Assembly: GCA_036506735.1 (NCBI GenBank)
Contig: DASXRG010000152.1
Span: 3,226-67,225, forward strand
Source: Candidatus Binatia bacterium
GTDB taxonomy: Bacteria > Desulfobacterota > Binatia > UBA9968
DNA: 64,000 nt
Direction: 5' to 3'
Positions 27,771 to 64,000 of this stretch are shown piece by piece (within the stretch, counting starts at the first letter, position 1; each line of letters starts with the position of its first letter). The notes beneath the pieces are model-generated. The model was not told the origin of the DNA and made no database searches. It saw nothing but the letters and a program-made list of their open reading frames with translations. The position numbers were made by a program, and so were the translations under genes.

Positions 27771-27791
27771 GGCACGGGCTTATTGCGCGCC

Positions 27792-29720: not shown

Positions 29721-29728
29721 GCCGGCGA

Positions 29729-48344: not shown

Positions 48345-48386
48345 AAATCGCCAAGGCGATCGCCGCGCGCCTGCTTTCGTAGCGAG

Positions 48387-48516
48387 ACTGTTGAAAAAGC
48401 TCCCGTTCGCCCTTCGAAACGCTCAGGACGAACGGGGGGGTGGTGCTTTGAGGAGGTTGATTTATTTTCGTTCATGCTGAGCCCCGTCGAAGCGTGAGAA
48501 GCGCTTTTTCAACAGT
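48387..48516. repeat. 130-bp composite MITE-like element with 14-bp terminal inverted repeats
   Basis: ACTGTTGAAAAAGC (48387-48400) and GCTTTTTCAACAGT (48503-48516) flank two family 3 modules: cccgttcgcccttcgaaacgctcaggacgaacggg (a CCCGTTCG/CGAACGGG hairpin) and cgttcatgctgagccccgtcgaagcgtgag. Confidence 0.65.
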
Positions 48517-48579
48517 GCTTTTACCTCGGGCGCCGGTGTGCTAGATAAAGTCGAAAGGATATTCTGAAGAGGGGGCGAG

Positions 48580-50796
48580 ATGGCGAAAAAAGTTGTCGGC
48601 AATCCGACGCCGAGAGTGGAAGGCGAATATAAAGTAACCGGCAAGGCGATGTATGCGGCCGATGTAACGCTTCCGGGAATGCTGTGGGGCAAGACTTTGC
48701 GCAGCCCGATTTCTTACGGGCGCATCAAAAAAATCGATCCTAGCCGCGCGCTACAGCTGCCGGGCGTCCACGCGGTCGTCACCGGAGAAGACGTGACCGG
48801 ACTCAAGATCGGCAGGAAGCTTTACGATATGCCGATCCTCGCCGACGGCGTCGTACGCTTCATCGGCGAAAAAGTCGCCGCGGTCACGGCGGACGACGAG
48901 CATACCGCCGAAGAGGCGGTGAATTTGATCGACGTGGAATACGAAGAACTGGCGCCGGTGCTGGATCCCCTCAAAGCGATGGAGCCCTCCGCGCCGATCT
49001 TGCACCCCGACGTGCCGAATTATAAAGGCCTGCCCAACAAGCTGGCGGCGGCCACCAACGACTTCATCTATGTCACCTGGAAAAAAGGCGACCTCGAAGC
49101 GGGTTTTCGCGAGGCGGACATCGTCGTCGAGAATATGTTCTATACCAACCCGGTCCATCAAGCTTACATCGAGCCGCACTCGTGCATGGTCAGCGCGGCG
49201 CCGGACGGCTCGGCGGAAATCTGGGCGTGCAGCAAGGTGCCGTACGGGCTGCGCGAGCAGGTGGCCAACGCCGTGCGCACCACGCCCGATAAGCTCGTCG
49301 TCCATCCGTGCTACATCGGCGGCGACTTCGGCGGCAAGGGCGACTTCATGGACGTCGCGCTGGTTTACGTCATGTCGAAAAAAAGCCGCCGGCCGGTCAA
49401 GATGGTGATGGATTACGACGAGGAGTTCGTGGCCGGCAATCCGCGCCACGCGTCGGTGATTCGAGTGAAAACCGGCGTCAAGAAAGACGGCGCGATCGTC
49501 GCGCATCACATGGAATTCGTCTTCGACAGCGGCGCTTACGGCGCGTTCAAGCCCAACGCGTTTCTCGGCGGCCCGCACGCCTCCGCCGGGCCGTACAAGA
49601 TTCCCCACGTGTTCATCGAGGAGCACATGGTCTACACGAATAAAATTCCGTGCGGCCACATGCGCGCCCCGGGCGACCCGCAGGGCTTTTTCGCCAACGA
49701 AAGCCAGCTCGACCTGGTCGCCAAGAAGCTCGGGATGGACCGGATCAAATTTCGACAAAAAAATCTGATGCACGACGGCGACCAGGACCCGACCGGCGAG
49801 ACCGTCCACTACATCAAGACCGAAGAGACGCTCGAGCGCGCTCTGAAAGACGCGGATTTTTACCGGCCCAAGCCCAAGAACGTCGGGCGCGGCGTGGCGC
49901 TGGTCCAGTGGATGCCGAACGGCGGCTCGGGCACGGTGCGAATCGAGATCGACGCAGAAGGCACGGCAACCATTTCTTCCGCGATGCTCGATCAAGGCGC
50001 CGGAACATATACGCTCCTATGCGAGATCATCGGACAGGAACTGGAAATCCCGCTCAATCAAATCAAAGTCGAAATTCTGGATACCAAGACCGGCAAGCAG
50101 GACACCGGCGTCGGCGCGAGCCGCGCGACGCGGGTCTACGGCAACGCGGCTTACCAGGCGGCGATCAAGGCGGTCGAGGAGATCAAGCGCGTGGCCGCGG
50201 AACAGATGAAGACCTCGCCGGATCAACTCACGCTCGCGAAAGGCGGCGTGCAGCCCAAGCGCGGCGGCAAGCGCGTGAGTTACGCCGATCTTGTCAAAGC
50301 GAAGGGCTCTCCGATCGCCGTCGAAGCGACTTACAGCGACACTTCTAAAGTTCACGAGGCTTCGATGTGCGCTCAGGTCGCGGAAGTGGAAGTCGATCCC
50401 GAGACCGGGCAGGTAAAGCTCAGAAAATTTACCTCGACGCACAACACGGGAACCGTCATCAATCCGCTTATGCATCAGGGGCAGATCGAAGGCGGCGCCA
50501 TGATGGGAATCGGTTACGCTCTCATGGAGCATCTCATGATCTCCGACGGCAAAGTGACGACGACGCACTTCGGCGACTACAAAATTCCCACGATTCAAGA
50601 CGTCCCGGTATTCAAGACTTCGGTTACTCAGAGACTGAAGGGTGCCGGGCCGTATCACAGCATGCCGATCGGTGAGACTACCAATATTCCGGCGGCGGCC
50701 GCGATCGCCAACGCCGTCGAGGACGCCGTGGGAGTGAGGATCAACTCGCTGCCGATTACGGCGGAAAAAGTGCTGGCGGCGCTCCGCGGCGCGTGA
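48580..50796 (+). CDS. xanthine dehydrogenase / aldehyde oxidase family molybdopterin-binding large subunit
   Basis: 738 aa. GEYKVTGKAMYAADV, QAYIEPH, GGDFGGKG and GQIEGGAMMGIGYAL are typical of the Mo-hydroxylase large subunit. Confidence 0.9.
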   Translation: MAKKVVGNPTPRVEGEYKVTGKAMYAADVTLPGMLWGKTLRSPISYGRIKKIDPSRALQLPGVHAVVTGEDVTGLKIGRKLYDMPILADGVVRFIGEKVAAVTADDEHTAEEAVNLIDVEYEELAPVLDPLKAMEPSAPILHPDVPNYKGLPNKLAAATNDFIYVTWKKGDLEAGFREADIVVENMFYTNPVHQAYIEPHSCMVSAAPDGSAEIWACSKVPYGLREQVANAVRTTPDKLVVHPCYIGGDFGGKGDFMDVALVYVMSKKSRRPVKMVMDYDEEFVAGNPRHASVIRVKTGVKKDGAIVAHHMEFVFDSGAYGAFKPNAFLGGPHASAGPYKIPHVFIEEHMVYTNKIPCGHMRAPGDPQGFFANESQLDLVAKKLGMDRIKFRQKNLMHDGDQDPTGETVHYIKTEETLERALKDADFYRPKPKNVGRGVALVQWMPNGGSGTVRIEIDAEGTATISSAMLDQGAGTYTLLCEIIGQELEIPLNQIKVEILDTKTGKQDTGVGASRATRVYGNAAYQAAIKAVEEIKRVAAEQMKTSPDQLTLAKGGVQPKRGGKRVSYADLVKAKGSPIAVEATYSDTSKVHEASMCAQVAEVEVDPETGQVKLRKFTSTHNTGTVINPLMHQGQIEGGAMMGIGYALMEHLMISDGKVTTTHFGDYKIPTIQDVPVFKTSVTQRLKGAGPYHSMPIGETTNIPAAAAIANAVEDAVGVRINSLPITAEKVLAALRGA

Positions 50797-50799
50797 CGT

Positions 50800-51087
50800 G
50801 TGAACAATCTTTCGTCACCCTTCGACAGGCTCAGGGTGACCGACCCTTATCCACTGCGTCTTCTCTCGGATCCGAAAGCCGATCTGATTCGAGCGGCCGG
50901 GGTGGCGAACGAGGGCCATTGGGCCGGTTTGATTTCGCATCCGGTCACGTTCGTCGTCGATCGGCAGAGAATCGTCCGATGGATTTACACCGGCGACAGC
51001 GCGTCCGATCGCCCGAGTCCGGTCGCCCTGGCGAAGACGGCCGTGATGGTTGCGAGAGGAGAACCGCTGCCGGAGGAACATGGCTAG
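50800..51087 (+). pseudogene. C-terminal fragment of a peroxiredoxin-like (AhpC/TSA) gene fused to a repeat element
   Basis: YPLRLLSDPKADLIRAAGV...HPVTFVVDRQRIVRWIY..DRPSP resembles only the C-terminal half of Bcp-like redoxins. The catalytic-Cys half is absent. The first 14 codons are the GTCACCC..GGGTGAC hairpin element (50814-50840). Confidence 0.45.
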
Positions 51088-51100
51088 GTCCTCTCGGATT

Positions 51101-51160
51101 GTCATTCTGAGGCGCAGCCGAAGAATCTCGGAGAGATCCTTCGCTTCGCTCAGGATGACA
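51101..51160. repeat. family 2 hairpin element (GTCATTCTGAGGCGCAGCCGAAG / inverted partner)
   Basis: Left arm at 51101-51123. The reverse complement of the right arm (51139-51160) reads GTCATCCTGAGCGAAGCGAAGG. The left arm matches 1858-1880 at 22 of 23 nt. Confidence 0.65.
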
Positions 51161-51197
51161 TGCCAACTGTGACTTCCGCATCTGGAAGGAGTCAGTC

Positions 51198-52031
51198 ATG
51201 TCTGACCACGCCAAGCCGCTTGAAACCGTTCCCGGCGTAGGATCATCGGTTCCCGAATGGCCGAAAAGTTCCGCGTCGGATCACTGGATACACATCGAGG
51301 AAAGTCCACGGCGCGTGCGCGTAACTTTCGGCGGCGCGACGATCGCCGACAGTAAGCGCGTTCTGCTTCTCCGCGAATCTAAATGCTTACCGGTCTACTA
51401 TTTTCCGAGCCAAGACGTGCGCCTGGACCTCATGCAGCCTACGACTAAGCGGACTCAGTGCCCCTATAAGGGCGACGCTTCCTACTGGACGATTGTCGTC
51501 GGCTCAAAGACCGCGGAAAATGCAGTGTGGAGTTACCTCGATCCACCGGCCTCGGCGGCGGCGATCAGAGGATGTTTCGCTTTTCAATGGACTTCGATGG
51601 ACGCCTGGCGCGAAGAAGAGGAAGAGATCTTCGTCCATCCGCGCGATCCCTACAAGCGGGTGGATGCGCTGCAAAGCTCCCGGCACGTTCGGATCGTGGT
51701 CGCCGGCGAGACCGTCGCCGATACGCGCCGGCCGCGTCTCCTCTTCGAGACCGGCCATCCATCGAGATATTATATCCCGCTGGACGATATCAGGCAGGAT
51801 TTGTTGCTGCGGTCCGAGACGACTTCCCGCTGTCCTTACAAAGGGCCCGCCTCTTACTGGTCGGTCAAAATAGGCGACAAAATTTTTCCGGACCTGGCGT
51901 GGAGCTATCTCGATCCGATTGCCGAGTGTCCGAAAATCAAGGGGCTGCTCTGCTTTTTTCAAGAACGGGAGGCGACGATCCACGTCGATGGGGAGGAATT
52001 GCCCAAGCTCTGGACGAAATGGTCCAGGTGA
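51198..52031 (+). CDS. tandem DUF427-domain protein
   Basis: Two copies of the pattern VRV.FGG..IADS...LL.E...P.YYFP..DV...L.....T.CPYKG.ASYW. Confidence 0.75.
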   Translation: MSDHAKPLETVPGVGSSVPEWPKSSASDHWIHIEESPRRVRVTFGGATIADSKRVLLLRESKCLPVYYFPSQDVRLDLMQPTTKRTQCPYKGDASYWTIVVGSKTAENAVWSYLDPPASAAAIRGCFAFQWTSMDAWREEEEEIFVHPRDPYKRVDALQSSRHVRIVVAGETVADTRRPRLLFETGHPSRYYIPLDDIRQDLLLRSETTSRCPYKGPASYWSVKIGDKIFPDLAWSYLDPIAECPKIKGLLCFFQEREATIHVDGEELPKLWTKWSR

Positions 52032-52062
52032 AAGAAAGTGAGCAGTGAGCAAAGAGAAAACC

Positions 52063-53012
52063 ATGAAAGCGCTTTACTGGGATGGAAACGATTTAACGCT
52101 TAAAGCCGCACATCCGACGCCCGCGCAAAGCCGCGACCAAGCTCTCGTCCGCGTCCGTCTCGCCGGTATCTGTTCTACGGACCTTCAGATCTTCCAAGGC
52201 TACATGGGATTTCGCGGCGTGCCCGGGCATGAGTTCGTCGGCGAGGTGATGGAAGGCCCGCCCGCCCTGGCGCGCAAGCGCGTCGTCGGCGAGATCAACT
52301 TCGGTTGCGGCCGGTGCGAATTTTGCCGGCGCGGGCTAAGCCGTCACTGTCCGAAGCGGCAAGTGATGGGCATTCTCGGCGCGGACGGCTGCTTCGCCGA
52401 AGTCGTCGCCGTGCCCGCGCGCAATCTTCATCCGGTTCCGGAGAGCGTGTCGGATGAAGAGGCGGTTTTCACCGAGCCGCTGGCGGCGGCGTTCGAAATT
52501 CTCGAACAGGTCGAGATCGATTTTACGCGTGAAGTCCTGGTCTTCGGCGACGGCAAGCTCGGGCTTCTCTGCGCTCAGGTTCTGGCGCTCACCGGCGCGC
52601 GCGTGACGCTCGTCGGAAAGCATCCCAACAAGCTCGCGATGGCCAAGAAGGCCGGCGTGCGCTCTGTTCTGCTGTCCGATTGGCAGTCGCGTCCGGCGGA
52701 CATCGTCGTCGAAGCGACCGGTTCGGCGTCCGGCCTCGAGACGGCTCTCGGCGCGGTGCGCCCGCGCGGCACGCTGGTTCTGAAGAGCACGGTGGCCGAG
52801 GAGCACAAACTTTCGCTCGCGCCCGTGGTGATCAACGAGATCAACGTCGTCGGCTCGCGCTGCGGCCTTTTCCCTCCGGCGCTCGATGCGCTGGCGCAAA
52901 AAAAACTCGCCGTCACCCGATGATCGAGAAAATCTACCCATTAAGTGAAGGTCTTGATGCTGTCGCGCACGCCCGCCGGACCGGAGCGCTTAAAGTACTG
53001 CTGAAGAGCTAG
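52063..53012 (+). pseudogene. zinc-type MDR alcohol dehydrogenase with a 1-nt frameshift about 30 codons before the end
   Basis: GICSTDLQIFQGY..PGHEFVG and GKLGLL motifs. The frame ends at TGA 52921-52923, but the expected C-terminus PMIEKIYPLSEGLDAVAHARRTGALKVLLKS continues in the +2 frame to 53012. Confidence 0.65.
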
Positions 53013-53143: not shown

Positions 53144-54892
53144 ATGAATTATTTTCACCCGTACGCGCCTTCACTGGACGAGACGATAATCACTGCGTGG
53201 GATTCTCAGGTCGCCGAGACTCCGTGGCTGGCGCCATCGCTGGCGGCGCAGACTGCTGATTTATTCCCCCGCTTCGCCGTCGCTTACGCCCAGTTGCGCG
53301 CCTTGCCGCGCGGCGCGCGCCGCGCGCTGCAGCGTCAACTCGCGCACTCGCAAGAGCTGGCGACGATTCCGTCTGAGTGGCAACAGAAGCTGGCCCGCTC
53401 GCTGGCCGGCGCGGCGCTGCTGTTGGCGCTTAGCCACGGAGTAGCACAGGCGAACACGATCACGGTTAACACAAACGTTCCGAAGATCATCACAGACGGC
53501 AAGTGTTCGCTGGTCGAGGCGATCATCAATGCCAACAACGACGCCGCGACACACGTCGACTGCGCGGCAGGCAGCGGCGCGGACACGATCGTGCTGCCGG
53601 CGGCCAGTGTTCATACGGTTTTAACCGACTACGATTTTACCTATGGCGCGACACGTCTGCCGGCGATCACGAGCCAAATCACGATTCAAGGAAACGGCAG
53701 CACGATAAACCGAAAGAAGAGCAAGTTACTGTCGCGTCTCATCGCTGTTGCGGCGAGTGGCGATCTCACGCTGGATCGGGTCACCTTAAGCGGCGGGGGG
53801 CAATACAATGGCGGTGCCATTATTAACTTAGGGAGTCTAACGGCCACGAATAGTACGATCTCAGGCAATACGGCTGTCAAAGGCGGCGGCATATACAATG
53901 CCGGCGGCGCTCTCTCTGTCGAAGAAGCTCTCTTTACCAAGAATGCAGGGGTCTATGGCGCCGGGATATTCGACTACAGCGGCACGACCGATATCGAGCA
54001 GAGCACTTTCACGGGTAACAGGACGGTGTATGGCGGGGCCGCTGTATATGGTCGCTTTGGTACGGTAACCATCCAAAACAGTACCATCACCGGTAATAGA
54101 GCCAGCCGTGCCGCGATCTATAATCAAGGCGGCATCCTCGAAATTCACAATACTATTATCACCAAGAACAGCGCTTCAGAGCATGGCGGCGGAGTGATGT
54201 CCAATAATAACCGGAGCTTTTCGCCGCCACCGTGTTCGGTGACGATCGAAAACAGCACGATTAGCGCCAACGCGGCTCATTATGATGGCGGCGGGATCGA
54301 GAACGAAAGCTGCACACTGGTCGTTAGCAACAGCACAATATCGGCCAACAAGTCCGGAACGGGTGCTGGCGGAATATCTACGGGTTTTGCACCGAGTCTG
54401 ATTGAGAACAGCACGATTTCCGCAAACAGTGGGAGATATACAGGCGGGGTGTACGGAGCTACCATCACGGTCACAAACAGCACCATCACGGGTAACAGGG
54501 CGAAATTAGTCGGCGGGGTTTACAATCGAGGCGACATGACTGTAAAGCGGACTATTGTGTCGGGAAACAAAGGGCCGGTGGGTGAGGCCTTAAGCAATCC
54601 CTCCGGGACGATGACCGTCGATAATTTCAACCTCTTCGGCACCAACGGCAATGCCGGGGTCAGCGGATTTACCGCTGGCGCCAGTGATATCATCCCGGGT
54701 GCCGGCGTCCTCACCGGCAATATCCTCGCGCCGCTGGCGAACAACGGCGGGCCGACTCAGACGCATGCCCTCGTCGCCGGTAGTCCGGCGATCGACGCAT
54801 CACCGGTCGACGCGGATTGTCCGTCCAGCGACCAACGTGGAACCTTGCGACCACAGGGTCCGCTGTGCGACATAGGTGCTTTCGAAAAGTAG
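53144..54892 (+). CDS. beta-helix paralogue A: conserved N-extension, signal-like segment, CSLREA-type domain, Pmp-like parallel beta-helix repeats, choice-of-anchor-Q-type C-terminus
   Basis: ATG at 53144 lies 5 nt after AAAGGAG. Order of elements: MNYFHPYAP..., LAGAALLLALSHGVAQA, ITVNT...DGKCSLVEAIINAN, a dozen or more coils of about 23 aa (NSTISGN..GGGIxN), then NNGGPTQTHALVAGSPAIDA...DQRGTLRPQGPLCDIGAFEK. Confidence 0.85.
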   Translation: MNYFHPYAPSLDETIITAWDSQVAETPWLAPSLAAQTADLFPRFAVAYAQLRALPRGARRALQRQLAHSQELATIPSEWQQKLARSLAGAALLLALSHGVAQANTITVNTNVPKIITDGKCSLVEAIINANNDAATHVDCAAGSGADTIVLPAASVHTVLTDYDFTYGATRLPAITSQITIQGNGSTINRKKSKLLSRLIAVAASGDLTLDRVTLSGGGQYNGGAIINLGSLTATNSTISGNTAVKGGGIYNAGGALSVEEALFTKNAGVYGAGIFDYSGTTDIEQSTFTGNRTVYGGAAVYGRFGTVTIQNSTITGNRASRAAIYNQGGILEIHNTIITKNSASEHGGGVMSNNNRSFSPPPCSVTIENSTISANAAHYDGGGIENESCTLVVSNSTISANKSGTGAGGISTGFAPSLIENSTISANSGRYTGGVYGATITVTNSTITGNRAKLVGGVYNRGDMTVKRTIVSGNKGPVGEALSNPSGTMTVDNFNLFGTNGNAGVSGFTAGASDIIPGAGVLTGNILAPLANNGGPTQTHALVAGSPAIDASPVDADCPSSDQRGTLRPQGPLCDIGAFEK

Positions 54893-54896
54893 GCCT

Positions 54897-56660
54897 ATGA
54901 ATTATTTTCAGCATGTTTCTCTAGCGGCGGATCAGACGATTATCGCCGCGTGGGACTCGCAAGTTGCAGAAGCGATCGGAACGCCCGAGGTTGAGGAGCT
55001 CTTAGTGCAGCGGGGAGGCGAGTTGTTTGCGCGCTTCGCTGTGTGCTACGCGCAGTTGCGCGCATTGCCGCGGGGCGCCCGCCGCGCTCTGCTGCGTCAA
55101 CTCACGCGGTCGCAAGTCCTGACGGGCATTTCACCTGAGTCGCAACGCAATCTCGCGCGCACGTTGGCCGGGGCGGCGTTGGTGCTTGCGCTGGGACAAG
55201 GAGTGGCTCAATCGGCCACGATTACCGTCAACACAAACATTCCAACGATTCTTGCGGACGGAAAGTGTTCGCTCGTCGAGGCGATCATCAACGCCAACAA
55301 CGACGCTTTAACCCATCCGGACTGCGCAGCGGGCAGCGGCGCCGACACGATCGCGCTGCCTGCGGCCAGCGTGCACACGATTTTAACCGATTACGACTCC
55401 ACGTATGGCGCCACGCGGTTACCGGCGATCACGAGCCAAATCACCATTCAAGGAAACGGCGGCAAGATCACGCGGAAGAAAAGTAAGCTCCTCTCGCGCT
55501 TAATTGCCGTGGCCAGCTCAGGAGACCTTACACTGGACAATGTAAGCGTAAGCGGCGGGGCGCAATATTTCGGCGGCGCCATAGTTAATTTTGGCATGCT
55601 CACGATTACGGACAGCACACTCTCCGGCAATACGGCCGTCCGCGGCGGCGCCATATATAACTACACGGACGGCGCGGTCACAATTTCTAATAGCGTCATA
55701 ACCGGCAATAAAGCCGCCTATGGCGGCGCGGGTATATTTACGTACCGCGGCGCAGTCACTGTAGAGAGCAGCGCCTTAACAAAAAATGTCGCTCCTTATG
55801 GCGGGGGCGTCTATAGCTACAATGGGACGGTGAGTATCGAGAATAGCACCATATCAAGCAATACGGGCTATCGCGGGGGTGGAATTCGTTATCATGGGGG
55901 AGAGTTCACCATCGAGCGCAGCCTCGTTGCAAACAATAAGGCTGCCGCCAGTGGAGGCGGTATCTCAGGCGAAGACAACGGAACTCTCACCATAAGCAAC
56001 AGCGTCATTTCGGGCAATAGCACCCCTTCGTTTGGCGCCGGCATATCGCTGGCTTCCGCCTACGTGACAATCGAAAACAGCACGATCTCCGGCAACAAGG
56101 CAGGTTACGCGGGTGGCGGCATTGCGAATTTCGGGGCATTTCTAATCATCGAGAACAGCACGATTTCCGGCAACAGTGCCAAGAGGATCGGCGGCGGCCT
56201 ATGGAACCAAGGGCCCGCCGCTCTTAGCCAGACGACCATTTCAAGCAATAGCGTAAAAAATATCGGCGGGGGCATTTACAACTCGTTCAATCAACTGACT
56301 TTGAACCGTAGTCTTGTTTCCGGTAACAAGGCCGGAGTCGGACCTGAAATAAACAATCGCAGCTCGAATTCGGCGACGGTCGTCGCCGATAACTTCAACC
56401 TCTTCGGCGTCAACGGCAATTCCGGGGTCACGGGCTTTGCCCCCGGTGTGTCCGACATCGTACCTCCCGCCGGCGTTCTTATCAGCAACATCCTCGCGCC
56501 GCTCGCGAACAACGGCGGGCCGACTCAGACGCATGCGCTCGTCGCCGGTAGTCCGGCGATCGATGCATCACCGGCCGACGCGGATTGTCCGTCCACCGAT
56601 CAGCGCGGCACTTTGCGACCCCAGGGCCCGCTCTGCGACATCGGCGCTTTCGAAAAATAA
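54897..56660 (+). CDS. beta-helix paralogue B
   Basis: ATG 4 nt after the stop of A. Same architecture as A. The segment after AAWDSQVAE in the N-extension is more divergent. Confidence 0.85.
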   Translation: MNYFQHVSLAADQTIIAAWDSQVAEAIGTPEVEELLVQRGGELFARFAVCYAQLRALPRGARRALLRQLTRSQVLTGISPESQRNLARTLAGAALVLALGQGVAQSATITVNTNIPTILADGKCSLVEAIINANNDALTHPDCAAGSGADTIALPAASVHTILTDYDSTYGATRLPAITSQITIQGNGGKITRKKSKLLSRLIAVASSGDLTLDNVSVSGGAQYFGGAIVNFGMLTITDSTLSGNTAVRGGAIYNYTDGAVTISNSVITGNKAAYGGAGIFTYRGAVTVESSALTKNVAPYGGGVYSYNGTVSIENSTISSNTGYRGGGIRYHGGEFTIERSLVANNKAAASGGGISGEDNGTLTISNSVISGNSTPSFGAGISLASAYVTIENSTISGNKAGYAGGGIANFGAFLIIENSTISGNSAKRIGGGLWNQGPAALSQTTISSNSVKNIGGGIYNSFNQLTLNRSLVSGNKAGVGPEINNRSSNSATVVADNFNLFGVNGNSGVTGFAPGVSDIVPPAGVLISNILAPLANNGGPTQTHALVAGSPAIDASPADADCPSTDQRGTLRPQGPLCDIGAFEK

Positions 56661-56666
56661 GAGCGT

Positions 56667-58160
56667 ATGAATTATTTTCAGCCATACGCGCTGGACGAAA
56701 CGATAGTCGCTGCGTGGGATTCTCAGATCGCCGAGACACCGTGGCTGGCGCAATCGGCGGCGGCGCAGAGTGCTGATTTATTTCCGCGCTTCGCAACCTG
56801 CTACGCGAAGTTGCGCGCATTGCCGCGGGGCTCGCGCCGGGCGTTGCAGCGGCAGCTCGCCCGCTCCCAAGGACCGGCGGCGATTCCGCTGGAGTGGCAG
56901 CCAAAACTCGCGCGCGCGTTGGCCGGAGCCGCGTTGTTGCTGGCGCTGCGACAAGGTTCAGTGCAGGCGGCCACGATAACGGTCAACACAAACATTCCGA
57001 AGATTCTTGCAGACGGCAAGTGTTCGCTGGTCGAGGCCATGGTAAACGCCAATGATACGGCTACAGGTCAGCCCTACGCGGACTGCGCGGCGGGCGATCC
57101 TACCGGAGCCGATACGATCATCCTGCGCAAAGGGACTCAAACGCTCGTAGATTTCTACTACTATGGGCTTGGTTTGCCGCCGGTTACCAGCCAGATCACG
57201 ATTCAAGGCAACGGCGCCAAGATTGTCCGCGCAAAGAATGCACCGGACTTCGGTCTGTTCTTGGTGCGTTCGTATGGTGGCGACCTCACACTCAATAATC
57301 TGACACTCAGCGGGGGTACTCAGTATGTCGGCGCTGTATCTAATCACGGAACTCTCAGAATCACCAACTGTGTCATCACAGGAAACCGAGCCGTAAGCGG
57401 CGGCGGAATATATAATCGCGGCCTTGGCTATATAAGCGACAGCACAATCTCGACAAATAGGGCGACATTCGGCGGCGGCGTGTTCAACATCGGCTCTCTA
57501 CGAATCATTAACTCTGTCATTACCGGTAACACGGCCAGCGGTTTCGGCGGCGGCGTTGATAACGCCTACAGTATCAGCCTTTCTATCGAGAACAGCACTA
57601 TCACGAAAAATTCGTCGGATAACGGCGGCGGGGTAAGCAACTATGGAGGTACCTTTAAAATCTCCAACAGCACCATTTCGAAGAACACAGCTATCCACGA
57701 TGGAGGCGGCGTTTACAACAATCCCGCATATGATGGCAGCTCTTCGTCTATTATCGGCAGCACCATCACGGGAAATAGCTCGGTTAGAGGTGGCGGAGTG
57801 TTTAACTCACGCAACAACTATAGTTACGGCTTCAAAACCACTCTTTCGATCAGCAACAGCACGATCTCAAAGAATTCGGCGACAAATGGCGGCGGTATAT
57901 TCAGCGAGTACCCCGGCGCCGGTCTTGCGACGATGCTCTACGTGAACCAAAACAGCACGATCCAAGGAAACAAAGCTGGCAATGACGGCGGCGGCGTTTA
58001 TAACGGGAGCTACTTTTACCTCGATAACAGCGCAATCTCAAAGAATTCGGCAGGGGCCCGCGGCGGCGGCGTGTTCAATGCGACCCCGTATGTTTTCTCC
58101 CCGACTAACAGCACGATCAGCGGCAACAAGGCGGCTGTTGGACCGAACGTTTTTCTGTGA
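56667..58160 (+). CDS. beta-helix paralogue C, lacking the C-terminal choice-of-anchor-Q-type domain
   Basis: ATG 6 nt after the stop of B. Same N-extension, signal-like segment and CSLVEAM motif. Ends ...SGNKAAVGPNVFL where the other paralogues continue for about 100 aa. Confidence 0.8.
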   Translation: MNYFQPYALDETIVAAWDSQIAETPWLAQSAAAQSADLFPRFATCYAKLRALPRGSRRALQRQLARSQGPAAIPLEWQPKLARALAGAALLLALRQGSVQAATITVNTNIPKILADGKCSLVEAMVNANDTATGQPYADCAAGDPTGADTIILRKGTQTLVDFYYYGLGLPPVTSQITIQGNGAKIVRAKNAPDFGLFLVRSYGGDLTLNNLTLSGGTQYVGAVSNHGTLRITNCVITGNRAVSGGGIYNRGLGYISDSTISTNRATFGGGVFNIGSLRIINSVITGNTASGFGGGVDNAYSISLSIENSTITKNSSDNGGGVSNYGGTFKISNSTISKNTAIHDGGGVYNNPAYDGSSSSIIGSTITGNSSVRGGGVFNSRNNYSYGFKTTLSISNSTISKNSATNGGGIFSEYPGAGLATMLYVNQNSTIQGNKAGNDGGGVYNGSYFYLDNSAISKNSAGARGGGVFNATPYVFSPTNSTISGNKAAVGPNVFL

Positions 58161-58201: not shown

Positions 58202-59962
58202 ATGAACTACTTGCGGCCTTACGCGCCTCCACTGGACGTGACGATAGTCGCTGCGTGGGATTTTCAGATCGCCGAGACACCGTGGCTGGCGCAATCGGCG
58301 GCGGCGCAGAGTGCTGATTTATTTCCGCGCTTCGCAACCTGCTACGCGCAGTTGCGCGCATTGCCGCGGGGCGCCCGCCGCGCGCTCCAACGTCGACTCG
58401 CGAGCTCGCAAGACCTGGCGGCGATTCCGCCTGAGTGGCGACAGAAACTGGCGCGCTCCGTGGCCGGCGCAGCGTTGCTGTTGGCGCTGGGGCAAGGAGT
58501 AGCTCAGGCGGCCACGATAACGGTCAACACAAACATTCCGAAGATTCTTGCTGACGGAAAGTGTTCGCTCGTCGAGGCGATCATCAACGCCAACAACGAC
58601 GCTTTAACCCATCCGGACTGCGCAGCGGGCAGCGGCGCCGACACGATCGTGCTGCCAGCAGCCAGTGTCCATACGGTATTAAACGATTACGATTTCACCT
58701 ATGGCGCCACCCGTCTGCCGGCGATCACGAGCCAAATCACGATCGAAGGAAACGGCAGCAAGATTACGCGAAAGAAAAGTAAAGTCCAGTCTCGATTAAT
58801 GGCTGTAACGACTACCGGCGATCTGACCCTCAAGAACGTGACGCTCAGTGGGGGGCAACATTCCTATGGAGGTGCGCTGTTCAATTATGGCGGTCTCATG
58901 ATCAACGAGAGCACCATTACAGGAAACAGTGCCGTTACAGGTGGAGCGGTAGCTAACGGTGCCGGTGCCGGCCTCGTTATCGAAGATAGCCTCTTTTCGA
59001 AAAACACGGCTGTTACCGGTGGCGGGATTTTTAATTATAAAGGCGATGTCACGGTTCGTAACAGTAGTCTCACCGGACACAAGACGATCTTCAGCGGCGG
59101 CGGTTTGTATGATGTTTCCGGGACCGTAACGATCGAGAGCGTGATCATTGATGGAAATAAGGCCGGCGCCGGCGGCGCCATCTATGCCAAAGGTAGCCTG
59201 CTCGACGTTAACAGCAGCATGATCTCGGGGAACAGCGCCGGTAGTCACGGCGGCGGCATTTGGATCGCTTCTACTCTTGGCGGCAGCGCCACAGTAACGA
59301 TTGCAAATAGCACGGTCGCGGGTAACAAGGCTCACTACAGTTCTGCCGGAATCCTACACCAAAACTTCGGCGGCACGCTTACGATTCAGAACAGCGCCGT
59401 TTTAGGCAATACTGCAAGTGCAGGCGGCGGAGGGATCGAGCAGACGTCCGGGACCATGACGATTGAGAATAGCACTATTTCCGGTAACCGCGGCGGTTCT
59501 GAAGGTGCCGGTATATGGAATCAGAACACTGCAACAATTCGTAATAGCACTATCTCGGGTAATACATCTAAACGGAGCGGGGGAGTTCGCAATTCGGGAC
59601 AACTTACACTCGATCGGAACCTTATTTCCGGTAATAAAGCCGCAGTCGGGCGTGAAATCTACAGTTACACGAGCGGCACGGTCGTCGCCGACAACTTCAA
59701 CTTATTTGGTAATAACGGCAGTGCGGGCGTGGTAGGTTTCTTACCCGGCGCCACCGACATCGTGCCGGGCGCCGGCGTCCTCATCAGCAACATCCTCGCG
59801 CCGCTCGCGAACAACGGCGGGCCGACTCAGACGCATGCGCTCGTCGCCGGTAGTCCGGCGATCGATGCATCACCGGCCGACGCGGATTGTCCGTCCACCG
59901 ACCAACGTGGAACCTTGCGGCCACAGGGTCCGCTCTGCGACATCGGCGCTTTCGAAAAATAA
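58202..59962 (+). CDS. beta-helix paralogue D
   Basis: Same architecture. The 5' end is nearly identical to C, an internal block is identical to B, and the 3' end is a B-like then A-like chimera. Confidence 0.85.
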   Translation: MNYLRPYAPPLDVTIVAAWDFQIAETPWLAQSAAAQSADLFPRFATCYAQLRALPRGARRALQRRLASSQDLAAIPPEWRQKLARSVAGAALLLALGQGVAQAATITVNTNIPKILADGKCSLVEAIINANNDALTHPDCAAGSGADTIVLPAASVHTVLNDYDFTYGATRLPAITSQITIEGNGSKITRKKSKVQSRLMAVTTTGDLTLKNVTLSGGQHSYGGALFNYGGLMINESTITGNSAVTGGAVANGAGAGLVIEDSLFSKNTAVTGGGIFNYKGDVTVRNSSLTGHKTIFSGGGLYDVSGTVTIESVIIDGNKAGAGGAIYAKGSLLDVNSSMISGNSAGSHGGGIWIASTLGGSATVTIANSTVAGNKAHYSSAGILHQNFGGTLTIQNSAVLGNTASAGGGGIEQTSGTMTIENSTISGNRGGSEGAGIWNQNTATIRNSTISGNTSKRSGGVRNSGQLTLDRNLISGNKAAVGREIYSYTSGTVVADNFNLFGNNGSAGVVGFLPGATDIVPGAGVLISNILAPLANNGGPTQTHALVAGSPAIDASPADADCPSTDQRGTLRPQGPLCDIGAFEK

Positions 59963-60137: not shown

Positions 60138-61721
60138 ATGAATTATTTTAGTCCGTTCTCGCTTTCCGCAGACGAAACGGTACTCGCCGCGTGGGATTCG
60201 CAAGTTGCTCAAGCGTCGGAGGATCCCTTTCTTGCCGAGGCGTTGGCGCAGGCTGGAAGCGAGATGTTGCCGCGCTTTGCCGCCCGTTACGCGCAGTTGC
60301 GCGCGTTGCCCCGCGGCGCCCGCCGCACTCTCCAGCGCCAATTGGCGCGTTCGCGCGAGCTGGCCACGATTTCGCCGGAGTGGCAGCCAAAACTCGCGCG
60401 CACGTTGGCCGGCACCGCGTTGTTGCTAGCCCTCGCGCACGGCGTCAGCCAGGCCGCGACGATAACGGTCAACACCAACATTCCGAAGATCAATCCGGAC
60501 GGACTATGCTCGCTGATCGAGGCGATCGTCAATGCCAACGACGACGCTGCAACCCATGCCGATTGCGCCGCGGGCAGCGGCGCGGACGTAATCGATCTGG
60601 CGCCGGCCAGCATCCATACGGTCACGAACAAGTTCGTCCAATATCATGGCGCCACCGGCCTGCCGACGATTACGAGCCAAATCACGATCGACGGCAACGG
60701 CGGCAAGATCGTCGCTAAAAGAGGCGCGTCGTTTCGCTTGTTGGCGGTGGAAAGCTCAGGGGATCTTACCCTATCGAACGTGACCGTGAGCGGCGGGTCG
60801 CAAAATCATGGCGGCGCGATATTTAGCTATGGCACGCTCACGATCAACGACAGCACGATCACCGCGAGCAAGGCCAACTTGGGCGGCGGCGTATTCAACG
60901 GCGCAGCCGCCGTTCTCAACATCGACGGCAGCACCATTTCGAAGAACACGGCGGCATACGGCGGCGGCTTGTACGATTACAGCGGCGCCGTCACCATCGC
61001 CAACAGCACGATCACCGGCAACAAGGCGTTCATCGACGGCGGCGGCATTTACGAACGCTCCGGTACTCTCACGGTCACGTACAGCACGATTTCGAAAAAC
61101 ACCTCGATTCGCGACGGCGCCGGCCTGCACGGCCGCGACAGCTACGCTACGATCGGCTACAGCACGATCTCCGGCAACACCGCCGGCTTCTTCGGTTACG
61201 GCGGCGGCGTTTACGACCGCTCGAGCACGACCACGATCGAAAACAGCACGATCTCAGGCAACAAGGCGAGAGCCGGCGCCGGCATATTCACGCGCGCGAC
61301 GCTCACCGTTTCCAACAGCACGATCGCGAAAAATACCGCCGACGACGGCGGCGGGATATTGAACCTGCGCGATCTGACTCTCAAGCGCACCCTGATATCG
61401 GGCAACTCCGCGTTCATCGGGCGGGAGATCGACGATTTCGACACGGTCACGCGGAATAATTACAACTTGTTCGGTAACAACGGCTACGACGGCGTTATCG
61501 GTTTTTCGCCAGGGGGAACGGACATCGTGCCCGGCGTCGGTCTTGCCGGCATCATCGGTCCGCTCGCCAACAACGGCGGCCCGACGCAGACGCATGCGCT
61601 GGTTACCGGGAGTCCGGCCATAGATGCGGCTCCTGCGGATGCCGACTGTCCCGCGGCCGATCAGCGCGGCACCGCGCGGCCGCAAGGAGCGAGCTGCGAC
61701 ATCGGTTCTTTCGAAAAGTAG
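60138..61721 (+). CDS. beta-helix paralogue E (higher-GC, most divergent copy)
   Basis: Preceded by a 175-nt spacer and GAGGAA. Same architecture: MNYFSPFS..., LAGTALLLALAHGVSQA, DGLCSLIEAIVNAN, NSTITGN coils, and DQRGTARPQGASCDIGSFEK. Confidence 0.85.
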   Translation: MNYFSPFSLSADETVLAAWDSQVAQASEDPFLAEALAQAGSEMLPRFAARYAQLRALPRGARRTLQRQLARSRELATISPEWQPKLARTLAGTALLLALAHGVSQAATITVNTNIPKINPDGLCSLIEAIVNANDDAATHADCAAGSGADVIDLAPASIHTVTNKFVQYHGATGLPTITSQITIDGNGGKIVAKRGASFRLLAVESSGDLTLSNVTVSGGSQNHGGAIFSYGTLTINDSTITASKANLGGGVFNGAAAVLNIDGSTISKNTAAYGGGLYDYSGAVTIANSTITGNKAFIDGGGIYERSGTLTVTYSTISKNTSIRDGAGLHGRDSYATIGYSTISGNTAGFFGYGGGVYDRSSTTTIENSTISGNKARAGAGIFTRATLTVSNSTIAKNTADDGGGILNLRDLTLKRTLISGNSAFIGREIDDFDTVTRNNYNLFGNNGYDGVIGFSPGGTDIVPGVGLAGIIGPLANNGGPTQTHALVTGSPAIDAAPADADCPAADQRGTARPQGASCDIGSFEK

Positions 61722-61753
61722 CGGCTCGCATCGCTGCAGCTTTCTATTCTTTA

Positions 61754-61805
61754 TTGACAGGGCGCGGTTAAATTTAGTATATAGCGCCAGTTTGTAGCGC
61801 TATAT
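61754..61805 (+). promoter_or_regulatory. sigma70-like promoter with the same conserved box, plus a 9-bp inverted repeat reaching the start codon
   Basis: TTGACA at 61754-61759 and TATATA at 61778-83. GTATATAGCGCCAGTTTG at 61777-61794. ATATAGCGC (61779-87) / GCGCTATAT (61797-61805). Confidence 0.5.
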
Positions 61806-64000
61806 GGCCGAAGTTCCTCCCTCGCCGCAGGACGCTGCCTTGCGCAGCGTTCACACCGCAAACCTGCCGGCAATCTTCGATCAGCTCCAAATCAGTGTCG
61901 TCGTTTCCACCTATCAGGCGGGCAAAACGATCCTCGTCCGCAACGACAACGGCACGCTCAACACCCACTTCCGCACATTTGCCAAGCCGATGGGGATCGC
62001 CGCGGATCACGCGCGGCTCACGATCGGCGGCTCGAACACGGTTTGGGAATACCGCAACATGCCGGCCGTGGCGGAGAAACTGGAGCCCGCCGGGAAACAC
62101 GACGGCTGCTATCTCCCGCGCCGCATCCATGTGACCGGCGACATCGACATCCACGAGCTCGCGTGGGACCGCGACAACGAGCTGTGGATCGTGAACACGC
62201 GTTTTTGCTGTCTCTGCACGCTCGACGCCGACCACAGCTTTCATCCGCGCTGGCGCCCGAAGTTCGTCACGGCCTTGGCGCCCGAGGATCGGTGCCATTT
62301 GAACGGCCTCGCGATGGTCGATGGCCGGCCGAAATACGTCACGGCGCTGGGTGAGACCGACACGGCCGGCGGCTGGCGCGCGAACAAGGCCAAGGGCGGT
62401 ATTCTGATGGACGTCGAGACCGACGAAATCCTGCTGCGCGGTCTCTCGATGCCGCACTCGCCGCGCTGGTATCAGGGGAAGCTCTGGGTGCTCGAATCAG
62501 GCGAAGGGAGCTTGGCGCTGGTCGATCTCGACAAGCGCACGTGGCGCACCATCGCGCAAGTGCCCGGCTTCACGCGCGGGATCGATTTTCTCGGCCCGCT
62601 CGCATTCATCGGGCTCTCGCAGGTGCGCGAGAGCGCGGTGTTCAGCGGCATTCCACTGGTCCAGCGGCTCAGCGAGCGCACCTGCGGTGTGTGGGTGGTG
62701 AATATAGAAACCGGCCAGACCGTCGGCTTTCTCCGCTTCGAGGCGGGTGTGCAAGAGATCTTCGCGGTGCAGCTCCTGCAAGGCATCCGTTTTCCCGAGA
62801 TGCTGGAATGGAACGACCCGCGGGTCTCTCAGTCATATGTCCTTCCCGACGAGGCGCTCGCCGATGTGGTTCTTCCCACCGCGGAAGAGCTGGCGCGCAG
62901 TCCGGCGTTCCACTTCCAACGCGGCAATGAATTTTATGACCAGGGCAAGCTCGGCGAAGCCATCGCCGCGTATCGCCAGTGCGTCGCCGTCCAGCCGGAT
63001 TTTCCCAATGCGCGCTACAATCTCGGCGTGGCGCTCGGCGACGCCGGGCGATATCAGGAGGCGACGAGCTGGTTGCAGCAGGTCGTCGAGGCCGAGCACG
63101 AAAAAGCCGAAGCGCACAACAGCCTGGGATTCGTTCTCGCCCGGCAGCGTCAGCCGCGTAAAGCGATCGCGTGCTACGAGCGCGCGATCGAGCTGCAACC
63201 GAATTATATTCAAGCGCATGTCAATCTCGGCATGAGCCTGCTGCAAATCGGCGACTACGCGCGCGGCTTCGCCGAATACGATTGGCGCTCAAAGCTGACG
63301 CCGATGCCGTTTCAATCGTCCCATCCCAAATGGGACGGCAGTCCGATAGCGGAGAAGACGCTTCTCGTCCCTGCCGAGCAGGGCGCCGGCGACGCGATTC
63401 AATTCGCGCGCTATCTGCCGCTGGCGGCAAAGCTTTGCCGGAAATTGGTCGTCATGTGCCGCGCGGATCTGATTCCGCTATTTTCCACTCTGCCCGGAAT
63501 AGCCGAGCTGCGGCAACCCGGCCAGATCGGGATGGCGGAGTTCGATACCTACCTGCCGCTGCTCAGCCTGCCGCGCGTGTTCGGCACAACCGTCGATGCG
63601 ATTCCCGCGGACGTGCCGTATATCGATAGCGCCGCGCTCCGCCGGCGCAGAGACGATCCGTCCCTGCTCTTGCCGGCCGCGTCGTGTCCGCGCGTCGGCA
63701 TCGTTTGGGCGGGGAGCCCGGACAACCGCACCGACAGCCAGCGCTCGTGCGCATTGGCGGAGTTTCTGCCGCTTCTGCGCATTCCAACCTTGGCGTTCTA
63801 CAGCTTGCAAAAAGGAGAGCGCGCGAAAGATCTCGCCGATGTGCCTGCCGCGGTGACCGATCTGCAGCCGCTGCTCGGCGACTTCGGCGATACCGCCGTG
63901 ATCGTCGATCAACTCGATCTGCTCATCACCGTCGATACGGCGGCGGCCCACCTGGCCGGAGCGCTCGGCAAGCCGGTGTGGAATCTGCTGACCGACGTCG
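61804..64000 (+). CDS. TIGR03032/DUF4915-like domain + TPR repeats + GT9 (heptosyltransferase-like) glycosyltransferase fusion; 3' end beyond window
   Basis: Not in the supplied ORF track. My own translation from the ATG at 61804 is open for 732 codons to base 64000: MAEVPPSPQD...VVVSTYQAGKTILVRN...ELAWDRDNELWIVNTRFCCLCTL...HPRWRPKFVTALAPEDRCHLNGLAMVDGRPKYVT... then TPR units (AIAAYRQCVAVQPDFPNARYNLG, AHNSLG, AHVNLG), then EQGAGDAIQFARYLP...VGIVWAGSP...ITVDTAAAHLAGALGKPVW. Confidence 0.85.
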   Translation, partial: MAEVPPSPQDAALRSVHTANLPAIFDQLQISVVVSTYQAGKTILVRNDNGTLNTHFRTFAKPMGIAADHARLTIGGSNTVWEYRNMPAVAEKLEPAGKHDGCYLPRRIHVTGDIDIHELAWDRDNELWIVNTRFCCLCTLDADHSFHPRWRPKFVTALAPEDRCHLNGLAMVDGRPKYVTALGETDTAGGWRANKAKGGILMDVETDEILLRGLSMPHSPRWYQGKLWVLESGEGSLALVDLDKRTWRTIAQVPGFTRGIDFLGPLAFIGLSQVRESAVFSGIPLVQRLSERTCGVWVVNIETGQTVGFLRFEAGVQEIFAVQLLQGIRFPEMLEWNDPRVSQSYVLPDEALADVVLPTAEELARSPAFHFQRGNEFYDQGKLGEAIAAYRQCVAVQPDFPNARYNLGVALGDAGRYQEATSWLQQVVEAEHEKAEAHNSLGFVLARQRQPRKAIACYERAIELQPNYIQAHVNLGMSLLQIGDYARGFAEYDWRSKLTPMPFQSSHPKWDGSPIAEKTLLVPAEQGAGDAIQFARYLPLAAKLCRKLVVMCRADLIPLFSTLPGIAELRQPGQIGMAEFDTYLPLLSLPRVFGTTVDAIPADVPYIDSAALRRRRDDPSLLLPAASCPRVGIVWAGSPDNRTDSQRSCALAEFLPLLRIPTLAFYSLQKGERAKDLADVPAAVTDLQPLLGDFGDTAVIVDQLDLLITVDTAAAHLAGALGKPVWNLLTDV

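Follow-up and report, generated by a model that had tools for sequence, protein, structure and literature searches.

The fusion gene and its five β-helix neighbors

The stretch analyzed here is a 64,000-nucleotide window from Candidatus Binatia bacterium (assembly GCA_036506735.1, contig DASXRG010000152.1, positions 3,226 to 67,225, forward strand), whose 3′ end carries a gene that fuses a DUF4915/TIGR03032 domain, an array of tetratricopeptide repeats (TPRs) and a glycosyltransferase (GT) domain of the GT-B type. An earlier note, made from the letters of the DNA, had drawn attention to this open frame and read it as a protein-directed glycosyltransferase with a substrate-recognition module. 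Five genes for paralogous β-helix proteins lie immediately upstream; absent from that earlier reading, they are the most informative feature of the locus. The fusion gene and its domains are arranged as follows.

61804 to 64000, forward strand: DUF4915-TPR-GT9-like fusion gene, truncated at its 3′ end, 732 of about 790-805 codons (open frame, orthologs, third-position G+C of 0.79)
61861 to 62805, forward strand: DUF4915/TIGR03032 domain, a six-bladed β-propeller, residues 20-334 (Pfam, NCBIfam, model)
62902 to 63273, forward strand: three TPR units linking propeller to transferase, residues ~367-490 (Pfam, PDB sequence matches, model)
63310 to 64000, forward strand: GT-B domain related to GT9, residues ~503-732 (hhalign, Pfam, model)

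Retranslation gives 732 codons with zero stops and one base left over, as the earlier note had claimed, and homologs match over the whole length. The stop-to-stop frame begins at 61798, which makes ATG 61804 the earliest possible start, and this start is further supported by the alignment of the N-terminus, MAEVPPSPQDAALRSVHT, with that of the ortholog P0001, MNQATPPPADAADLHSVHT. G+C contents of 0.67, 0.45 and 0.79 at the three codon positions constitute the coding signature expected of GC-rich DNA, and the chance of such an open frame, as estimated from base composition alone, is ~1e-8 to 1e-9. Above all, the gene is real because its orthologs are 67-82% identical across 98-100% of their length; as these comprise 780-805 residues, some 55-75 C-terminal residues of the protein fall beyond the window end, and the orthologs predict a stop codon ~170-220 nt farther on, often with more leader-β-helix genes behind it. 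The mechanical list of open reading frames (ORFs) holds only shorter entries in this interval, in other frames or on the opposite strand (e.g., 61774-62457, reverse), and the fusion frame is missing from it because it runs past the window end, an explanation already offered in the earlier note and in keeping with the behavior of the list. The motifs quoted there (STYQAGK, WIVNTRFCCLCT, FHPRWRPKFVTALAPEDRCHLNGLAMVDGRPKYVT, GWR, EQGAGDAIQFARYLP, VGIVWAGSP and DTAAAHLAGALGKPVW) are all found in the translation. The protein features no signal peptide, transmembrane or other hydrophobic segment and is therefore predicted to be cytoplasmic.

The implied novelty of the three-domain fusion did not hold up. 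A search with the whole protein brought up more than 120 clusters (67-80% identity, ~100% coverage), many of them named “TIGR03032 family protein” and deriving from metagenome-assembled genomes (MAGs) labeled Binatia, Deltaproteobacteria and Gammaproteobacteria, so that the window protein is an ordinary member of a catalogued yet unstudied orthologous group. A scan of GTDB representatives likewise found copies at 82-70% identity in MAGs of widely varied labels; at loci L008-L033, orthologs 70-82% identical are labeled Binatia, Syntrophobacteraceae, Verrucomicrobiia, Blastocatellia, Enterobacteriaceae, Actinomycetota and Gammaproteobacteria, and phylum labels this different at such identity suggest binning or labeling errors, or horizontal transfer. 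In the literature library searched, no paper was found that mentions the family as DUF4915, TIGR03032, PF16261 or IPR017481, nor one that combines TPR, GT9 and protein glycosylation.

A conserved propeller at the N-terminus

Membership of the N-terminal region in TIGR03032/DUF4915, proposed earlier from motifs, is borne out by profile searches: Pfam DUF4915 (PF16261) reaches 441 bits (cutoff 35), its profile positions 2-316 of 316 being covered by residues 20-334, and NCBIfam TIGR03032 reaches 420 bits (cutoff 251.5). The family motifs TYQ, NT, DRCHLNG, GWR, PHSPR and RG, which show no or almost no variation when 33-150 diverse members are aligned, are all present in the window protein. What had been called “probably propeller-like” is modeled by AlphaFold for window residues 1-345 as a six-bladed β-propeller, with a mean predicted local distance difference score (pLDDT) of 93.4 and a predicted template-modeling score (pTM) of 0.92. 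Its nearest folds in Foldseek are propellers of the Kelch type (Keap1, KLHL3-WNK4) together with designed six-blade propellers, at template-modeling (TM) scores of 0.5-0.6 and 11-13% identity, a likeness at the level of fold only, and no Kelch family of Pfam matches the window protein. Against PDB sequences the DUF4915 profile yields a one-blade match to the pyrroloquinoline quinone (PQQ) glucose dehydrogenase sGDH (E = 0.04) and nothing else; given this one weak match, the signature of the blade repeat looks closer to the NHL, SGL or sGDH type.

Conservation is concentrated in a few short segments, namely PMG62-64, H117, D162-R-C-H165-L-N-G, P-H218-S-P-R221, R258-G and C294-G, and when the alignments are mapped onto the strands of the model, each of these near-invariant motifs starts the innermost strand of a successive blade. 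Judged from these strand positions, the conserved residues would face the central site that is used by propeller enzymes and by many binders. About 28 invariant columns, which in P0121 numbering include H119, D164, H167, N169, R194, H220, S221, R223, S234, R260 and R277, are retained across DUF4915 fusions that share only 30-50% mutual identity.

A TPR array joined to a divergent GT9 relative

The three TPR units claimed in the earlier note are placed by Pfam at residues ~367-490 (TPR_1 82 bits, TPR_2 72 bits, TPR_11 90 bits; E 1e-20 to 1e-26) and appear in the model as helical hairpins. A PDB sequence search with the whole protein matches TPRs only, those of OGT and SPINDLY. The AlphaFold model of the full-length ortholog P0001, 80% identical to the window protein, has a mean pLDDT of 90 and comprises an all-β region (15-334), TPR hairpins (361-497) and a Rossmann-type α/β GT-B region (514-775). 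Its top PDB matches in Foldseek are Arabidopsis SPINDLY, Thermobaculum and human OGT and Xanthomonas XcOGT, with E values between 5e-15 and 1e-10 and more than 500 columns aligned; the TM score of these matches is only ~0.2 because the domain orientations differ.

The identity of the transferase domain was addressed by comparing a profile of the family’s C-terminal domain with Escherichia coli K-12 WaaC, WaaF, WaaU and WaaQ in hhalign, which returned a probability of 95.2% (E 2.7e-8) over 218 columns that span both Rossmann lobes. The EQGAGD motif aligns with WaaC SSMGD, which holds the catalytic G12-D13, and VDTAVAH aligns with WaaC VDTGLSH (D261/H266); the Asp of the GD pair and the Asp and His of VDTxxxH are invariant or near-invariant within the fusion family, and the equivalent of WaaC K192 is not assignable in the hhalign alignment. 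The same profile gave 0.4% against the GT41 domains of P0172, P0216 and P0206, all taken from DUF4915-GT41 fusions, with no PF13844 match, and 0.2% against WaaG as a GT4 control. Because of this difference between the heptosyltransferase and GT41 comparisons, the transferase is, by sequence, a divergent relative of GT9 and not a GT41 domain. The earlier assignment to GT9 thus stands as far as heptosyltransferase homology and catalytic motifs are concerned, whereas by Pfam the window copy remains under threshold: Glyco_transf_9 (PF01075, cutoff 22) scores 16 bits on this truncated copy, which ends ahead of the conserved C-terminal W-R-W...PWYPTMRLFRQ segment, and 22.6-25.5 bits, just over the cutoff, on four full-length orthologs. 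The Pfam match covers only the nucleotide-sugar-binding segment (profile positions ~152-219 of 247), and against PDB sequences the GT-domain profile finds nothing at E ≤ 1.

Five leader-bearing β-helix paralogs upstream

The five genes that precede the fusion gene are all on its strand, and the gaps from the first paralog through the fusion gene measure 4, 6, 41, 175 and 82 nt.

53144 to 54892, forward strand: β-helix paralog 1, candidate client, with leader, signal-like segment, CSLVEAI N-cap, PMP/PbH1-type β-helix and choice-of-anchor Q module (Pfam Beta_helix; NF041518 choice_anch_Q, 82 bits)
54897 to 56660, forward strand: β-helix paralog 2, same architecture as paralog 1
56667 to 58160, forward strand: β-helix paralog 3, with leader, N-cap and helix, lacking the choice-of-anchor Q module
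58202 to 59962, forward strand: β-helix paralog 4, same architecture as paralogs 1 and 2
60138 to 61721, forward strand: β-helix paralog 5, ending 82 nt before the fusion gene

All five share an N-terminal leader of ~85 residues, net basic, of the form MNYF..AAWDSQ..RFA.CYA.LRALPRGARRALQR.LA, which is followed by a signal-peptide-like segment, LAGAALLLALGQGVAQA/ATITV, with an h-region and an AxA-like site. The rungs of the β-helix are of the PMP/PbH1 type and contain ~20% Ser and Thr, and four of the five paralogs end in a choice-of-anchor Q module (NF041518, 82-86 bits). Pfam and NCBIfam recognize in the paralogs only Beta_helix, Chlam_PMP and choice_anch_Q, with no autotransporter domain. 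The leader itself matches no Pfam or NCBIfam model, and its relatives in databases are named only “hypothetical protein”; a search of a 5.8-billion protein set with a leader profile returned 322 unannotated matches, mostly fragments of 100-205 residues. The starts assigned mechanically to paralogs 1 and 2, TTG 53060 and GTG 54876, are probably wrong: the conserved MNYF begins at ATG 53144, with an aaaggag Shine-Dalgarno sequence ahead, and at ATG 54897, and with these starts the apparent 17-nt overlap of the two genes vanishes. Paralog 3 stops early (...GNKAAVGPNVFL, then a stop codon) and could represent either a gene in decay or a naturally short form.

N-glycosylation of the HMW1C kind was considered and rejected, in that the counts of N-X-S/T sequons in the five paralogs do not exceed those of composition-matched shuffles (z = 0-1.3).

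DUF4915 genes and leader-β-helix genes keep company across loci

Hidden Markov models of the leader, β-helix and choice-of-anchor Q modules were built from the paralogs and run over all fetched loci (numbered L001 onward). Among 27 DUF4915-anchored loci with informative flanks, about 22 hold a member of the leader-β-helix/choice-of-anchor Q family nearby. A leader-β-helix gene is the immediate same-strand neighbor of the fusion gene in L002, L005/6, L008, L009, L010, L011, L013, L014, L016, L018 and L033, and remnants of such neighbors are found in L001, L003, L007 and L031/32. That of L001, 3′ of the closest JGI ortholog, is a mere 132-residue fragment (4520-4915, forward) matching the β-helix and choice-of-anchor Q end, and appears to be what is left of the usual neighbor after decay.

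The association also holds in the opposite direction: searching the metagenome collection with an alignment of the leader only gave 51 loci, 24 of which have a DUF4915/GT gene as direct neighbor; many of the other contigs are too short to judge. The DUF4915 family accounts for only ~2,600 of 1.84 billion representative proteins. It further extends beyond the fusion architecture, as stand-alone DUF4915 genes are directly followed by leader-β-helix genes in L017, L021, L028 (two copies), L029 and L030. The two successive pairs of L028 (9830-17188, forward) have broken frames, probably through assembly frameshifts. The wider context varies by locus, with toxin-antitoxin, MoCoBD/alcohol dehydrogenase, ABC substrate-binding protein, MMPL and Kdp genes among the surroundings, and the number of paralogs and the side on which they lie vary as well. 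The linkage is therefore strong and reciprocal, if not obligatory.

DUF4915 is combined with interchangeable tailoring enzymes

An exhaustive HMMER scan of 1.84 billion representatives with the DUF4915 domain alone recovered 2,594 at E ≤ 1e-10, and the size of the family is also put at ~2,600 clusters at 50% identity. The best 150 matches carry the domain at either end of the protein or by itself, and the same GT9-like domain is present in 18 of them. By Pfam, the proteins with an N-terminal DUF4915 (n = 33) contain TPR (27), GT41 (8), GT9 (6), GT2 (4) and GNAT (2) domains, and those with a C-terminal one (n = 54) contain Sulfotransfer_3 (38), Asp/Asn β-hydroxylase (20) and a few GT41 and GNAT domains. 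Since the donors of these partners differ (nucleotide sugars, 3′-phosphoadenosine 5′-phosphosulfate, 2-oxoglutarate/O2 and acetyl-CoA), the factor common to them is most simply the acceptor.

Gene neighborhoods outside the leader-bearing loci repeat the pattern. A hydroxylase-sulfotransferase-DUF4915 fusion (P0132, L048) adjoins an 809-residue β-helix/choice-of-anchor Q protein and a 2-oxoglutarate (2OG) oxygenase; a similar fusion, P0127 (L043), sits on a short contig with no informative neighbors. The stand-alone DUF4915 protein P0138 adjoins a separate TPR-GT41 gene, the arrangement recorded at L047 (794-4325). In L034/L035 (295-3540, Porticoccaceae MAGs) a stand-alone DUF4915 gene lies beside separate 2OG-Fe(II) oxygenase and sulfotransferase genes. 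Both arrangements mirror the domains that are fused elsewhere; the Porticoccaceae copies of DUF4915 carry a long low-complexity N-terminal extension. A Bacteroidales copy is found among cargo genes of the type IX secretion system, with an FG-GAP protein directly downstream, and a DUF4915-TPR-GT41 fusion adjoins a Big_5/FG-GAP protein. The recurring theme is thus DUF4915, tailoring enzymes and exported repeat proteins. As far as found in the searched literature, neither the partnership with leader-bearing β-helix proteins nor the modular DUF4915 fusions appear to have been described.

A proposed glycosyltransferase for dedicated clients, and its alternatives

With about even confidence, we propose that the fusion protein is a cytoplasmic glycosyltransferase dedicated to the neighboring β-helix proteins as clients. 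The GT9-related GT-B domain would transfer a nucleotide-activated sugar, which by family analogy may be ADP-heptose, onto the Ser/Thr-rich β-helix neighbors, either ahead of export or while it is under way. Client handling would fall to a platform made of the TPR superhelix and the DUF4915 propeller, in which the propeller would tie the transferase to exported repeat proteins of this class; in this lineage the ~85-residue basic leader, placed ahead of the signal-peptide-like segment, is a plausible docking tag. An enzyme that lacks signal peptide and transmembrane segments next to clients that carry an h-region and an AxA-like site supports this arrangement. Three observations add weight to the suggestion of the earlier note that a recognition module is here coupled to a protein-directed glycosyltransferase: the combination of TPRs and GT-B domain as in SPINDLY and OGT, the conserved neighbors that are candidate clients, and the fusions of DUF4915 to modifying enzymes; the suggestion is still an interpretive step, in which we infer the neighbors as acceptors, the modified residues, the donor sugar and the role of the propeller, be it docking or catalysis as well.

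Several points weigh against the proposal. Classical GT9 enzymes act on lipopolysaccharide (LPS) and not on proteins, and with sequons not enriched, no specific acceptor motif is identified in the paralogs. The neighbors are not always of the expected kind: the β-helix/choice-of-anchor Q protein of L048 has an ordinary signal peptide and no leader, and the neighbors in L036 and L044 are FG-GAP proteins rather than β-helices, so the leader is not a universal recognition element. Either partner can, moreover, occur by itself, since L019 and L027 hold the fusion without β-helix neighbors, and in L067, L071, L074, L075 and L080, which extend at least 4.7 kb on each side, the leader-β-helix clusters lack a DUF4915 gene over 5-10 kb. 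Related soil MAGs, most of them labeled Binatia or “delta proteobacterium,” are the source of many loci, and a few loci are redundant copies, such that some of the adjacency may reflect shared ancestry. Finally, the His/Cys/Asp/Arg cluster predicted at the central face of the propeller resembles an active site or a metal site more than it does a surface for docking proteins.

This last point leads to the alternative that survives best, although we regard it as a tentative possibility: the DUF4915 propeller would itself be an enzyme, e.g., a metal-dependent lyase, hydrolase or isomerase that acts on the client or on its modification, and the fusion would be bifunctional. The ~28 invariant columns do lie at the starts of the inner strands, the canonical active-site face of six-bladed propeller enzymes, the sole sequence hint from the PDB is to a blade of an enzyme, PQQ glucose dehydrogenase, and where a stand-alone DUF4915 gene lies beside clients with no fused enzyme, the domain must act alone. 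The stand-alone copies of L034 and L047 do, however, have separate transferase genes alongside; among solved folds the nearest are not enzymes but the Kelch domains of Keap1 and KLHL3, which bind peptides, no catalytic propeller family is matched significantly, and the clustering of the residues is itself deduced from the strand pattern. The Kelch-like fold and the pattern of fusions favor the propeller as a recognizer of clients.

Were the acceptor instead not a protein but LPS core, lipid A or another glycolipid or polysaccharide, the β-helix neighbors would not be substrates at all. The characterized GT9 enzymes to which the domain is homologous, WaaC, WaaF and WaaQ, are indeed LPS heptosyltransferases, and in some bacteria relatives of the other fusion-partner classes (Asp/Asn hydroxylase, sulfotransferase, GT2 and GNAT) also modify lipid A, LPS or glycans. 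Yet TPR arrays and GT41 partners typify protein-directed enzymes, the fusion has no segment for membrane association, and no LPS or polysaccharide biosynthesis genes lie near, whether among the scanned window genes or in related loci; a Pfam scan of ten other long ORFs of the 64-kb window found no secretion-system, LPS or ADP-heptose genes. As the reciprocal linkage to exported proteins would also be left without explanation, we consider a non-protein acceptor unlikely.

We deem it similarly unlikely that the neighbors are partners rather than substrates, with the DUF4915 protein serving as their cytoplasmic chaperone, targeting factor or regulator, or with the β-helix proteins being carbohydrate-active enzymes that act on an extracellular glycan which the transferase helps to build. 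A long conserved leader before a signal-like segment would suit a cytoplasmic binding partner, stand-alone DUF4915 genes do adjoin clients, and right-handed β-helices include many polysaccharide lyases and hydrolases. The strong conservation of the GT catalytic motifs speaks against a purely assisting role, as does the repeated fusion of DUF4915 to catalytic modifiers and not to chaperone or secretion components, and the paralogs resemble PMP and choice-of-anchor surface proteins with variable repeat numbers, matching no specific lyase family. That the adjacency is a functionally meaningless synteny inherited in one lineage is very improbable: most loci do come from related soil and sediment MAGs, some of them near-duplicates, but the wider context differs, the count and side of the paralogs vary, and the link survives changes of both DUF4915 architecture and promoter type.

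If the proposal of a client-dedicated glycosyltransferase holds, the fusion would represent a third architecture of dedicated glycosyltransferases for β-helix surface proteins, beside the bacterial autotransporter heptosyltransferases (BAHTs) and HMW1C, and would assign a role to an uncharacterized propeller domain. It would also point to uncultured soil bacteria, probably Binatia-like, in which whole families of surface proteins receive varied modifications (sugars, sulfate, hydroxyl, acetyl). In broader terms, and speculatively, DUF4915 may be the signature of widespread, undescribed cytoplasmic systems that modify exported β-helix and other repeat surface proteins, in which the propeller, as a docking domain for a client tag such as the ~85-residue leader or as a new metal-dependent enzyme, is combined by fusion or adjacency with interchangeable GT9-like, GT41, GT2, sulfotransferase, Asp/Asn hydroxylase/2OG oxygenase and GNAT modules. 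Such systems would apply to whole secreted proteins the modular logic of leader plus tailoring enzymes known from the pathways of ribosomally synthesized and post-translationally modified peptides. A sizeable family without assigned function, DUF4915/TIGR03032, in any event gains a concrete and testable context: a candidate enzyme, up to five adjacent candidate substrates and a conserved leader as a possible recognition tag.

Relation to known glycosylation systems

The closest conceptual relatives are the BAHT enzymes TibC and AAH, WaaC-like GT-B transferases that, with an Asp as catalytic base and ADP-heptose as donor, hyperglycosylate Ser residues of β-helix autotransporter passengers, with TibC structures available as 4RAP and 4RB4 (PMC4358343). 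As with TibC/AAH and their substrates TibA and AIDA-I, a gene for a WaaC-like GT-B enzyme lies here beside genes for exported right-handed β-helices, and the GT9-homologous domain of the fusion keeps the Asp equivalent to WaaC D13. In contrast to the BAHT enzymes, the fusion adds a β-propeller and a TPR array, its GT profile finds no PDB match at E ≤ 1 in a search that should include 4RAP and 4RB4, and its neighbors in the window carry the ~85-residue leader and choice-of-anchor Q but no autotransporter β-barrel of Pfam. Nor does any evidence point to the iron finger or the dodecamer of TibC, although no examination was aimed at the TibC inserts (the Cys4 iron finger and the β-hairpin thumb). 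Membership in the BAHT family was rejected on these counts: no TibC sequence match, no autotransporter domain in the neighbors and the extra domains.

With the GT41 enzymes (OGT, SPINDLY, XcOGT and Thermobaculum OGT) the fusion shares a TPR superhelix directly N-terminal to the GT-B domain, and genuine TPR-GT41 enzymes are found joined to other DUF4915 proteins or encoded next to them; the fusion differs in a catalytic domain that is not GT41, in having three TPRs only, and in a propeller without counterpart in OGT or SPINDLY. Homology to the LPS heptosyltransferases WaaC, WaaF and WaaQ extends through both Rossmann halves and includes the motifs GD and D-T/S-x-x-x-H-(L/I)-A, whereas the fusion is marginal or under threshold for the GT9 family in Pfam, contains protein-interaction domains, lies in no LPS gene context and has an acceptor that is probably a protein. 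In the HMW1C-HMW1 pair, a dedicated cytoplasmic glycosyltransferase is encoded beside a secreted β-helix adhesin and acts on it before export; HMW1C is a GT41 N-glycosyltransferase that modifies N-X-S/T sequons. The concept is alike, but the fusion is GT9-like and sequons are not enriched in its neighbors. As for the propeller, the Kelch domains of Keap1 and KLHL3 have the same six-bladed fold and capture short peptide motifs of their clients; in the absence of close structural or sequence agreement, the resemblance is one of fold only.

A conserved control region ahead of the fusion gene

Two further features lie between paralog 5 and the fusion gene, and what we say of regulation at the upstream region derives from conservation alone.

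61754 to 61805, forward strand: upstream control region, with TTGACA at 61754-61759, an 18-nt spacer, TATATA at 61778-61783 and a palindrome
61718 to 61737, forward strand: terminator-like hairpin over the stop codon of paralog 5 (consensus match only)

The palindrome, a perfect 9+9 repeat ATATAGCGC-N9-GCGCTATAT at 61779-61805, covers the first two bases of the ATG and is single in the window (one match vs. 0.03 expected). The design of promoter and palindrome is kept upstream of the orthologs in L002/L086, L008-L011, L013/L063, L014, L054 and L064, with a variable spacer in the form TATAGCGC-N8-9-GCGCTATA. No Shine-Dalgarno sequence lies ahead of the fusion ATG, and the palindrome may serve as an operator or else fold into a hairpin, by which the start codon of a near-leaderless mRNA would be masked. 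A scan for consensus promoters did not call TTGACA-N18-TATATA, as the -10 hexamer lacks the final T.

In another clade of DUF4915 genes, the σ70-like element and palindrome are replaced by cTGGCAttgcgGTTGCT, found ~20 nt upstream of the start codons in L016, L017, L022, L028, L029, L061, L066, L077, L081, L085 and L090; this motif, TGGCAT-N5-TTGCT, fits the -24/-12 consensus of σ54 with correct spacing. The hairpin at the end of paralog 5 suggests that the fusion gene may have its own transcription, terminator-like sites in the region being no commoner than in shuffled sequence.

Other genes of the window

Farther upstream, the window holds at 25893-29747 on the reverse strand a 625-residue TPR/BTAD-like protein followed by a 651-residue ORF without Pfam family, both seemingly unrelated to the fusion gene. 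A block with a MoCoBD-type molybdoenzyme, DUF427 and a zinc alcohol dehydrogenase (47172-52923) precedes the β-helix cluster and is syntenic with positions 3670-8262 of L002, an ENA contig and the nearest relative that shares the wider context; relative to L002, the window has in addition a Rieske/LigXa-type oxygenase at 47172-48344.

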